Below, in pieces: positions 20,513 through 22,582 of a DNA stretch of 64,000 nucleotides (positions are counted from its first letter, which is position 1; each line of letters starts with the position of its first letter). The position numbers and the translations under genes were made by a program. The notes beneath the pieces were generated by a model. The model was not told where the DNA came from. It searched no databases and saw nothing but the letters and a program-made list of their open reading frames with translations. The DNA is from an uncultured Armatimonadetes bacterium (GTDB lineage Bacteria > Armatimonadota > Hebobacteria > Hebobacterales > Hebobacteraceae). The stretch spans positions 960,001-1,024,000 of the forward strand of contig OY970296.1 of assembly GCA_963716175.1 (NCBI GenBank), read 5' to 3'.

Positions 20513-20542
20513 TTGACACTGCCGCGAAGCCCATGCTAGAAT
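20513..20542 (+). promoter_or_regulatory. Sigma70 promoter of the tRNA operon
   Basis: TTGACA-18 nt-TAGAAT with extended TG. Confidence 0.75.
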
Positions 20543-20612: not shown

Positions 20613-20688
20613 GGCCCCATCGTCCAGAGGCCTAGGACGCCGGCCCTTCAAGCCGGAAACGGGGATTCGAATTCCCCTGGGGCTACCA
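20613..20688 (+). tRNA. tRNA-Glu(TTC) with atypical C33
   Basis: Cloverleaf; anticodon arm ccggc-ccTTCaa-gccgg; T loop ttcgaat; encoded CCA. Confidence 0.9.
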
Positions 20689-20763
20689 GCTACATCGCCA
20701 TCCACCCAGGGCGCGGTCAGGCGTGGGCTTGCTCGTGGCGGCGGGAGTGAAATCGCGAGGGCC

Positions 20764-20838
20764 GGGCGCATGGCTCAGTGGGAGAGCGCCTGCTTCACAC
20801 GCAGGAGGTCGCTGGTTCAAATCCAGCTGCGCCCACCA
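20764..20838 (+). tRNA. tRNA-Val(CAC)
   Basis: Anticodon arm cctgc-ttCACac-gcagg; CCA end. Confidence 0.95.
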
Positions 20839-20872
20839 GCACCCGGCTGCCAGCCGGGGCAAACCCGGGCGC

Positions 20873-20948
20873 GGGCGAATAGCTCAGTTGGTAGAGCGCT
20901 TGCTTTACACGCAAGTGGTCACAGGTTCGAGCCCTGTTTCGCCCACCA
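20873..20948 (+). tRNA. tRNA-Val(TAC)
   Basis: Anticodon arm cttgc-ttTACac-gcaag; CCA end. Confidence 0.95.
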
Positions 20949-20957
20949 GGCAAATCT

Positions 20958-20984
20958 GTAGGGCGGGCATACCCATGCCCGCCG
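20958..20984 (+). repeat. GTAG-type REP copy 5 (short-loop variant) in a tRNA spacer
   Basis: gtagggcgggcatacccatgcccgccg. Confidence 0.88.
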
Positions 20985-20999
20985 GCCGTATCGTAGCGC

Positions 21000-21076
21000 G
21001 GAGCCGTAGTGCAGTGGTTTAGCACACCGGCCTGTCAAGCCGGAGGTCGCGGGTTCAAATCCCGTCGGCTCCGCCA
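21000..21076 (+). tRNA. tRNA-Asp(GTC)
   Basis: Anticodon arm ccggc-ctGTCaa-gccgg; CCA end. Confidence 0.95.
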
Positions 21077-21090
21077 CAAGTGAACACCGT

Positions 21091-21230
21091 GCCGGGTTAG
21101 CTCAGGTGGTAGAGCTTACGCCAGACGCTAGCATACCTAACTGAAGACCGACGAACTCGTGCCGGGTTAGCTCAGGTGGTAGAGCTTACGCCAGACGCTA
21201 GCATACCTAACTGAAGACCGACGAACTCGT
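21091..21230 (+). repeat. Two identical 70-bp tandem units, each starting with a tRNA-Phe-like 5' half
   Basis: gccgggttagctcaggtggtagagc plus 45 nt, at 21091 and 21161. Confidence 0.95.
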
Positions 21231-21306
21231 GCCGGGGTAGCTCAGATGGTAGAGCACTGGACTGAAAATCCGGGTGTCCCCAGTTCGATTCTGGGCCCCG
21301 GCACCA
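21231..21306 (+). tRNA. tRNA-Phe(GAA)
   Basis: Anticodon arm ctgga-ctGAAaa-tccgg; CCA end. Confidence 0.95.
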
Positions 21307-21346
21307 GTGAGGCGGCGGTTCGCTGCCGAGCGGACGGGAGCTGGAT

Positions 21347-21583
21347 ATGAGGCCACTGCGACACACCATCCATGCCGTGATCCGGCCAGGCGAAGACGGT
21401 GGGTTCGTCGCGGAGTGCCTAGAGATTGCGGTAGTGACCCAAGGCAAGAGCCTCGATGAAACGGTTGCCAACCTCCGGCAGGCGGTGGGGCTGCACCTGG
21501 CAGGAGAGGACCTGGAGGCATTGGGCCTGTCACCCTCGCCGTCCCTTGTGGTGAGCATGGAGATCGAACCGGTCCATGCCTAA
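21347..21583 (+). CDS. hicB: HicB-family antitoxin (short; no obvious DNA-binding domain)
   Basis: GGFVAECLEIAVVTQGKSLDETVANLRQAVGLHL. Confidence 0.88.
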   Translation: MRPLRHTIHAVIRPGEDGGFVAECLEIAVVTQGKSLDETVANLRQAVGLHLAGEDLEALGLSPSPSLVVSMEIEPVHA

Positions 21584-21821
21584 GCTCCGGCGCCTCTCGG
21601 GCCGTGAGGCGCTAGCAGTGCTGGGTCGGTTCGGGTTCGAACGGGTGTCGCGGCGGGGGAGCCACGTGAAGCTTGCCAGGGTGGGCCCAGCGGGTGAACG
21701 GCAGGTTCTGACTGTTCCTGATCATGCCACCATGGATCTGGGGACTATCCGCGCTATCTTCCGACAGGCCTCGCGGTTCATCCCTGCAGATCAGTTGCGG
21801 GTGTTCTTCTACGACGACTGA
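21576..21821 (+). CDS. hicA: HicA-family toxin (mRNA interferase)
   Basis: LRRLSGRE...GFERVSRRGSHVKL...TVPDH....GTIRAIFRQA. Confidence 0.9.
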   Translation: MPKLRRLSGREALAVLGRFGFERVSRRGSHVKLARVGPAGERQVLTVPDHATMDLGTIRAIFRQASRFIPADQLRVFFYDD

Positions 21822-21874
21822 GCCCGAAGAGGGCCTGAGCTAGACGAGCGGTCGCGAGAGCGAACCCTGGTTTG

Positions 21875-21902
21875 CCCAGTTCGACTCTGGGACCCGGCAC
21901 CA
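21875..21902 (+). repeat. tRNA-Phe 3' half (T arm, acceptor strand, CCA); att-like duplication
   Basis: cccagttcgactctgggacccggcacca versus cccagttcgattctgggccccggcacca in the intact gene. Confidence 0.9.
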
Positions 21903-21912
21903 GCGACAGAGA

Positions 21913-21936
21913 GGCGACGGCCGTCCGGTCGTCGCC
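21913..21936. terminator. GC-rich hairpin between convergent units, possible terminator
   Basis: ggcgacggcc-gtcc-ggtcgtcgcc; no clear U tract. Confidence 0.45.
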
Positions 21937-21951
21937 CCTATCTCCTCTTCC

Positions 21952-22449
21952 CTACGCGATGGCGGAGAACTTGCTCTTCGGCGACTGGCAGATGGGACAC
22001 TTGTCGGGCGCTTCCCCGATCACGGTGTTGCCGCACACCCCGCACACCATGATGGGCGCCGCCAGCATGTCCTTGCCCGAGTTCAGCGCCGCCAGCGCCT
22101 CCGTGTAGAGCCGGTGGTGGATCTTCTCCACCGCCAGCGCGTTCTCGAATGACATCACCGCCGCTTTGTTCCCCTCCGCCTTCGCCTCGGCCACGAACCC
22201 CGGGTACATCTCGGTGAACTCGTAGGACTCACCGCCCATCGCCGCCTTCAGATTCTCGGCCGTCCCCTTCAGGCCCAGCACCTCGAAATGCGCCTGCGCG
22301 TGCACCCGCTCTGCCTGGGCTGCAGCCCGGAACAGTTTCGCGATCTGGGGATATCCCTCCGCCTCCGCCTTCTTGCCAAAGGCCAGATAGGTCTGATGAG
22401 CCTTGCTCTCGCCCGCGAACGCAGTCTGCAAGTTGTCACCGGTTGCCAT
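21952..22449 (-). CDS. rbr: Rubrerythrin
   Basis: AFAGES, AERVHA, GESYEFTEMYP, EKIH; C-terminal CGVCG...CPIC. Confidence 0.93.
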   Translation of the reverse strand: MATGDNLQTAFAGESKAHQTYLAFGKKAEAEGYPQIAKLFRAAAQAERVHAQAHFEVLGLKGTAENLKAAMGGESYEFTEMYPGFVAEAKAEGNKAAVMSFENALAVEKIHHRLYTEALAALNSGKDMLAAPIMVCGVCGNTVIGEAPDKCPICQSPKSKFSAIA

Positions 22450-22582
22450 TACCAACTCTCCTTCACCATCAGGTGTAGTTCAGCACCACCGTCGCGCACG
22501 GCCTTCGCCGCCTGATCGCCTCCACCTATCCCTCTGCACAGCCATCGCTGCGACCTTGCCCGCGATTCGCGCCAAGGAGCTG

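Follow-up and report, generated by a model that had tools for sequence, protein, structure and literature searches.

We analyzed a window of 64,000 nt (positions 960,001 to 1,024,000 of contig OY970296.1, assembly GCA_963716175.1) from an uncultured Armatimonadetes bacterium of the family Hebobacteraceae, hereafter genome G000, and focused on its tRNA-Phe locus, where an intact tRNA-Phe gene and a hicBA toxin-antitoxin pair lie between fragments of a second tRNA-Phe allele. Sequence reading and ARAGORN place the locus at the end of a plus-strand tRNA operon with the order Glu (20613), Val (20764), Val (20873), Asp (21000), and Phe(GAA) (21231-21306). The operon is headed by a predicted sigma-70-like promoter at 20513-20542 (TTGACA-18-TAGAAT with TG before the -10 box, 11 of 12 matches, one site versus 0.3 expected), and the four genes preceding tRNA-Phe, tRNA-Glu(TTC), tRNA-Val(CAC), tRNA-Val(TAC), and tRNA-Asp(GTC), occupy 20613-21076 of this conserved operon. 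Two repeat units follow on the same strand. Unit 1 (21088-21157) consists of CGT, the first 25 positions of a tRNA-Phe carrying T7 (21091-21115), and 42 nt (21116-21157) of a 45-nt spacer that runs to 21160. Unit 2 (21158-21227) is 100% identical to it, with its 5' fragment at 21161-21185 and its spacer at 21186-21230, 3 nt past this register. The intact tRNA-Phe(GAA) at 21231-21306 (69.3 bits) is next, followed by a short hairpin read from the sequence (CGGCGG-TTCG-CTGCCG, 21313-21328), whose left arm seems to resemble the start of the terminator hairpins after other tRNA-Phe copies. The remainder comprises a HicB-like antitoxin open reading frame (ORF) at 21347-21583, the hicA toxin ORF at 21576-21821, 41 nt of intervening DNA, and a 3' tRNA-Phe remnant covering about positions 37-76 including CCA (21863-21902, with A66 at 21892), all on the plus strand. 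A terminator-type hairpin on the same strand (GGCGACG-10 nt-CGTCGCC, 21913-21936), of the kind that trails tRNA-Phe copies in this genome and its relatives, and a minus-strand rubrerythrin gene (21952-22455) form the flank past the insert.

The original prediction, made from the letters alone, had described two 5' halves with T7, an intact tRNA-Phe with a G7:C66 pair, hicBA, and a 3' half with A66, and we find these features placed as claimed. Tandem Repeats Finder (TRF) reports a 70-nt period with 2.4 copies and 97% matches at 21088-21255. The 25-mer GCCGGGT...GAGC occurs with 0 mismatches at 21091 and 21161 and with 2 mismatches (G7, A16) at 21231, and a 28-mer covering the T-arm, acceptor strand, and CCA occurs with 0 mismatches at 21875-21902 and with 2 at 21279-21306; neither was matched in any of 100 shuffles. 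The 5' fragments stop precisely at position 25. At the other end, similarity to tRNA-Phe begins at about position 37 (21863), and a direct repeat of 44 nt with 84% identity (21267-21310 and 21863-21906) gives the insert a regenerated tRNA on one side and a displaced fragment on the other, as in genomic islands.

The insert itself (21307-21862) holds only the two hicBA ORFs, and no integrase gene lies inside it. The downstream ORF (81 amino acids) matches the HicA domain (Pfam PF07927, E 1.9e-12, 47.5 bits versus a cut-off of 27). The upstream ORF (78 amino acids, with a GGGAG motif 6 nt before its ATG) overlaps hicA by 8 nt and is weakly HicB-like (PDB 2yzt, E 1.6e-4; a HicB-family chain, E 0.0035), with no Pfam HicB model above threshold and no NCBIfam match. 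Of 30 further genomes from the class, only one contains similar DNA; the match covers the hicB part at 70% identity and has no tRNA nearby. We also compared contigs from four public sequencing runs with the window, and the results given here are among the matches listed. One contig from run X3 (493 nt) carries 41 nt of a tRNA-Phe 3' end, 26 other letters, and then 21930-22355 with 18 differences in 426 nt; by our own reading the 26 linking letters resemble the first arm of the window terminator. We take this contig to come from a related organism whose terminator and rubrerythrin come immediately after tRNA-Phe, without hicBA or the 3' half. An empty site is thus represented by the X3 contig and by metagenome contig L079, in which the same tRNA is followed by a terminator, and is in keeping with the rarity of hicBA in the class. 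A 548-nt contig from X1 spans 21278-21825 without a difference and is the sole X1 piece on hicBA among these matches; X1 may be the source sample. RNA run X14 yielded contigs on the tRNAs and rubrerythrin and none on hicBA, and such contigs cannot reveal RNA ends. A second hicB-like/hicA pair lies at 4176225-4176732 of G000 C1 and is paralogous to the window pair (phmmer E 4.5e-37 and 1.7e-30), with no DNA similarity between the two at E 1e-3.

Two tRNA-Phe alleles meet at this site. The intact gene is of an allele that we call type I (G7:C66, A16, A26), and the flanking fragments belong to type II (T7:A66, GGTGG D-loop, G26, GACT T-loop). Both 5' fragments are type II, and the 3' fragment is identical to type II at 28 of 28 positions from the T-arm on, the part in which it matches this allele perfectly. 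Four intact T7 copies of type II exist elsewhere in the genome, and the copy at 789636, the native genes of relatives G012 and G008, and metagenome contig L070 share one identical type II sequence. The original prediction had taken the outer fragments for pieces of one second allele split around an insert and had proposed looking for an uninterrupted T7:A66 gene in relatives; L070 holds exactly this gene, in the order Asp, two T7 units, uninterrupted T7:A66 gene, terminator, and with the intact copies in this genome, G012, and G008 it confirms that part of the account. T7 pairs with A66 because both descend from one type II allele, not because the pairing has been selected. The type I gene of the window is identical at 76 of 76 positions to two non-native copies in G011, which belongs to another genus and whose native gene differs, and to the gene in L079 (Asp, one T7 unit, type I gene, terminator, without hicBA). 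Since it is shared with another genus at full length, the type I gene probably arrived together with hicBA. Its spacer tail in the window, CGACGAACTCGT, occurs elsewhere only before the type I-derived genes of L061, L063, and L078, and gene and spacer together have the look of an import. Between the type II fragments, the intact gene shows type I sequence over its whole length and is not a host/island hybrid. In G011 (C1 3626817-3629586, locus L033) a second tRNA-Phe identical to the window type I gene lies 2.6 kb downstream of the native tRNA-Phe, and the ORFs between the two gave no Pfam match.

The units are not peculiar to the window locus. The genome (4.56 Mb, one contig) contains five tRNA-Phe(GAA) genes, a Phe-derived "Leu-GAG" pseudo-tRNA, and three partial tRNA-Phe copies (1072221, 2279678, 1028009), and nearly all of its other tRNAs are single-copy. 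Each unit comprises tRNA positions 1-25 and a 45-nt spacer, of which about 32 nt form a conserved core. Five of the six full tRNA-Phe-type copies have such a unit in front of them, with two units at 789636; the sixth copy (2285183) has only a truncated, diverged spacer remnant. The spacer reads TTAC(A/G)(G/C)CAGA(C/G)GC(T/C)AGCATACCT(G)AACTGAAGA followed by a variable tail. Similarity between copies is limited to the unit or units, the tRNA, and about 40 nt of terminator. All full copies outside the window locus are T7 type II, and there is no second type I copy in the genome. Homology among dispersed copies has its left edge at the D-arm: of the partial copies, those at 2279678 and 1072221 begin at positions 8-10 behind unrelated DNA, and the distal units at 747606, 2099634, 162117, and 789505 lose tRNA similarity 5' of the D-arm. 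Copies 789636 and 2279678 have 167 nt upstream in common at 97% identity, and this homology stops exactly at position 25, past which one runs into spacer and the other into tRNA position 26. From this comparison, arrays expand and contract by unequal recombination, which accounts for the two identical units in the window. A consensus scan of the spacer finds no sigma-70 promoter, and a -10-like box (TAGCAT/TAGTAT) read by hand is a weak candidate. We also considered the spacer as a structured RNA; RNAalifold of 45 units gives a D-arm hairpin only, with no Rfam match.

The Phe-derived gene at G000 C1 161982-162056 carries anticodon GAG, and AAG and GGG occur in metagenome loci (L061, L063, L078, L064). 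These anticodon-changed genes contain stem mismatches, yet units still stand in front of them, and they probably represent copies in decay, labeled Leu or Pro by tRNA finders. Beyond the window end, a decayed D-arm with the start of a spacer (G000 C1 1025603-1025640) and two partial tRNA-Phe copies (1028009-1028068 and 1072221-1072308) lie on the same strand as the native tRNA-Phe, 44-91 kb downstream of it. They might mark older accreted segments, with much of the window from 22 to 64 kb being island DNA. The 5.5-kb segment at 2279-2285 kb of this genome and the small inter-copy segments in G011 gave no informative Pfam matches.

The order Glu-Val-Val-Asp-Phe is kept in the 13 relatives of the family in which the operon was located. 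Units stand between tRNA-Asp and tRNA-Phe in six of these (one in G002, G010, G013, and G014, three in G009, and decayed in G011), and no unit is present in the remaining seven (G003, G004, G005, G006, G007, G008, G012), whose tRNA-Asp and tRNA-Phe are 12-44 nt apart. In G013 and G009 the 5' fragment of the unit equals the first 25 nt of the local tRNA. In G014 and G010, which belong to the genus of G013, the fragment has drifted by 6-8 differences and the spacer by 6-11, while the tRNA itself is unchanged. Judged from this drift, older units decay freely, which is the outcome that the original prediction had named as speaking against a function of its fragments. Pattern-based scans with the spacer core listed, as matches, 26 metagenome contigs and the contigs of three relatives in a genome collection; viral contigs gave 0 matches. 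In 17 of these, tRNA-Phe has one to four units ahead of it; in four others the gene behind the units is a decayed tRNA-Phe, and in three it is a Phe-derived tRNA with changed anticodon (called Leu-AAG). In total, tRNA-Phe or a decayed derivative lies behind the unit in 24, the exceptions being L069 (an integrase gene) and L071. Eight of the 26 show the native operon context. In all, 45 distinct units from several genera carry the same spacer core. Units that differ at position 7 from the tRNA behind them are common, not rare, in arrays. The distal unit is the more diverged in eight of 15 arrays, with two ties and five reversals, and the distal-to-proximal gradient of decay is suggestive only.

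Taken together, this is a family in which tRNA-Phe modules multiply and replace one another, and the site is a tRNA-Phe hot spot. For the window locus we lean, with little more than even confidence, toward a recombination scar at the native tRNA-Phe that ends the conserved Glu-Val-Val-Asp-Phe operon. A resident type II tRNA-Phe (T7:A66) with its own terminator would have occupied the site first. A foreign module, made up of a 45-nt spacer, a type I tRNA-Phe, and cargo including hicBA, would then have undergone recombination with this gene within or beside the D-arm region (positions 10-25). Positions 1-25 of the resident would have stayed upstream, fused to the incoming spacer, and its 3' part with the terminator would have been displaced past the cargo. 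A later deletion may have taken out the greater part of the element together with the 5' end of the displaced gene, leaving hicBA and about positions 37-76, and slippage or unequal recombination between the 25-nt repeats may then have duplicated the 70-bp unit. The D-arm left edges of dispersed copies and the homology that ends at position 25 fit recombination at the D-arm between a resident gene and a module of D-arm, spacer, and whole tRNA-Phe. What the sequences show is the anatomy of the locus, the unit across the family, the identity of the alleles, the decay of units, and a related strain without hicBA and the 3' half; the sequence in which events took place, the D-arm crossover, the deletion, and a putative enzyme are reconstructed from these.

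Several observations weigh against such a scar. No recombinase was found in or beside the insert, and the nearest PF00589/PF00239 matches of the genome lie far outside the window. We considered as candidate agent a large serine recombinase located 230 nt from the units in G011; it has no close homologue in 15 family genomes, where the best other match has 32% identity and is not near tRNA-Phe. A tyrosine integrase gene 73 nt beyond the unit in L069 was likewise considered and appears to be a coincidental neighbor from a multicopy family, with 10 places in G011 and three in G000 and with a unit or tRNA-Phe fragment within about 1.5 kb at none of 28 other loci; an integrase relative in viral contigs has only 27% identity. 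At the right junction we searched for a decayed D-arm upstream of the 3' fragment and obtained a local alignment score of 13 versus a shuffle mean of 14.6, with 72% of shuffles scoring as high, and there is no significant tRNA similarity upstream of 21863. With no detectable D-arm remnant there, the model needs the extra deletion, and because the two units are 100% identical it also needs the later duplication. The GC content of the insert is not distinct from that of its flanks, no complete element with both junctions was found among the genomes and metagenome contigs searched, and the conservation of the spacer core among the metagenome contigs proves nothing, as these were retrieved by that core and are biased toward it.

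The multicopy tyrosine recombinase is found at G000 C1 808773-809822, 2242362-2243963, and 2102435-2103694 and at 10 places in G011. Its copies have 63-88% identity between copies and genera with frequent in-frame stops, and the family behaves like a transposable element, not like a tRNA-specific integrase.

We speculated further that the 70-nt unit and tRNA-Phe constitute the attachment module of a new kind of integrative element in this Armatimonadota-like family, a proposal that we hold only tentatively and consider possible at best. The tRNA-Phe on such an element would be a complete replacement gene with a leader of its own, and recombination would take place in the D-arm, perhaps through a large serine recombinase resembling that next to the G011 array; each round would stack the first 25 nt of the previous gene upstream. 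One could then read the succession of tRNA-Phe allele replacements off the unit arrays, and dispersed copies whose anticodon has changed would be old modules in decay. If the D-arm model proposed above holds, it would extend the ways of targeting tRNA genes by one in which the whole gene is replaced rather than one end, and would bear on how tRNA fragments and anticodon-mutated copies are annotated. The interest of the locus otherwise lies in the lineage-wide pattern of multiplied tRNA-Phe, arrays of 5' fragment and spacer, and whole-gene alleles common to different genera.

The original prediction had offered integration as one cause, in the form of two successive end-replacing events. Relics of integration are indeed present, but the 5' halves did not come from a second integration at this site, being part of a family-wide repeat unit. 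A more specific version, in which two tyrosine integrases acted independently with crossovers in the anticodon loop, would combine a 5'-distal element of a rare kind, later almost wholly deleted, with a classical 3'-distal island carrying hicBA. The 3' fragment does begin near position 37, and by our own reading the end of the spacer core (CCTAACTGAAGA) resembles tRNA-Phe positions 27-38, the anticodon stem-loop. The same genome also has a clear case at tRNA-Thr(TGT) (G000 C1 1709494-1711299), where the 5' half (positions 1-38, preceded by a TAGAAT box) sits displaced 1.73 kb upstream of the intact gene with a tyrosine integrase between, an arrangement that looks like 5'-distal integration. 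At tRNA-Phe, however, there is no such element between displaced fragment and regenerated gene: only the 45-nt spacer separates the 5' fragment from the next tRNA start, a spacing left unexplained, and no integrase is at the locus. The same spacer core recurs in 45 units of several genera, so that the units must have been inherited or propagated as such, not made anew here. Classical 3' replacement of a T7 host gene, moreover, predicts a hybrid, and the intact gene is type I over its full length. We regard this pair of integrations as unlikely. Local events without any integrative element, that is, replacement of the resident gene through ectopic gene conversion or homologous recombination with another copy of unit and tRNA-Phe and a separate insertion of hicBA downstream, would agree with the failure to find a recombinase. 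Several copies of unit and tRNA-Phe could serve as donors in the genome, and unequal recombination among repeats is evident, with 2279678 looking like the 789636 array contracted to zero units. All other copies in the genome are nevertheless T7 type II and offer no type I donor, another genus carries copies identical to the type I gene, and a 3' half directly repeated on both sides of hicBA is what insertion at a tRNA end usually leaves behind. Purely local events thus appear quite improbable.

The original prediction had also raised the idea that the transcript folds into a tRNA-like frame, in which the acceptor strand of the 5' fragment pairs with the 3' fragment (T-arm, acceptor, CCA), directing RNase P and 3' processing so that a CCA-ended hicBA RNA is released or stabilized. 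ViennaRNA gave some encouragement for chosen transcript ends: for transcripts 21077-21905 or 21077-21945 the 7-bp acceptor pairing has a probability of 0.86-0.99 and the T-arm one of 0.93-0.97, and for 21161-21905 the acceptor pairing reaches 0.88-1.0. With the whole operon (20613-21940), however, the acceptor pairing falls to 0.0. The D-arms are never predicted (at most 0.014), and the internal tRNA-Phe folds at a probability of about 1, so that its excision would sever the frame into two molecules. Elsewhere, 5' units of the identical kind precede tRNA-Phe copies that have no 3' partner, and the units decay in relatives. The search that the original prediction had suggested, for toxin-antitoxin modules between complementary tRNA halves, returned no other locus with a toxin-antitoxin pair or with halves around a gene (0 of 26 metagenome contigs). 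The complementarity of T7 and A66 is accounted for by type II descent, the consensus fold of the 45 units is the D-arm hairpin alone, and no Rfam family matches the fragments; RF01684 gave a weak match on tRNA-Asp only. An RNA-processing device is unsupported, and we consider it highly improbable.

Palindromes of repetitive extragenic palindromic (REP)-like type also occur near these tRNAs. One (gggcgggcatacccatgcccgcc) lies at 20956-20989 of the window, between tRNA-Val and tRNA-Asp, and recurs at 94-100% identity on numerous contigs from at least seven relatives. Upstream of the tRNA-Phe copy at 789636 there is a second REP-like family. At 2134-2391 the window has a weak match to PF01797 (Y1 transposase, E 1.9e-5), one of six weak matches in the genome and possibly a REP-associated transposase. 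A Y1 transposase was considered as the agent of hairpin-bounded modules and set aside, the genome having only weak matches and none near tRNA-Phe copies.

In the literature on tRNA-gene integration and hicAB islands we found no description of tandem units of 5' fragment and conserved spacer, in searches that were not aimed at the unit pattern and therefore do not establish its absence from print. The predicted pair in the insert is comparable to HicAB type II toxin-antitoxin systems in its HicA domain, its small overlapping HicB-like ORF upstream, and its accessory distribution, and differs in that the antitoxin is short (78 amino acids) with a weak HicB match. tRNA-like structures are able to recruit RNase P at the ends of longer RNAs, as in the mascRNA/MALAT1 type. 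The locus resembles these in that a possible mRNA ends in a T-arm, acceptor strand, and CCA, whereas the acceptor partner is found about 700-800 nt upstream, on the far side of a genuine tRNA that has to be excised in its own right, and there is no conservation of the arrangement here. Displaced 5' parts of tRNA genes are described as known and infrequent (PMC6563490), and recombination of elements with the 5'-distal part of tRNA genes has been described (Zhao and Williams 2002, as cited in PMC6563490). Displaced 5' fragments upstream of a regenerated gene are common to those elements and the locus, and such a case exists at tRNA-Thr in this genome; the window fragment, in contrast, stops at position 25 and not in the anticodon loop, and it is followed by only 45 nt and belongs to a tandemly repeated, family-wide unit. 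From genomic islands integrated in tRNA genes, of the Islander/TIGER type (PMC4383910), the window segment differs in its length of 0.56 kb without an integrase, in an intact gene that is foreign over its full length instead of hybrid, and in the presence of 5' fragments as well. What it has in common with them is an intact tRNA and a displaced fragment that bound, as direct repeats, an accessory segment missing in a related strain, together with the repeated use of tRNA-Phe.

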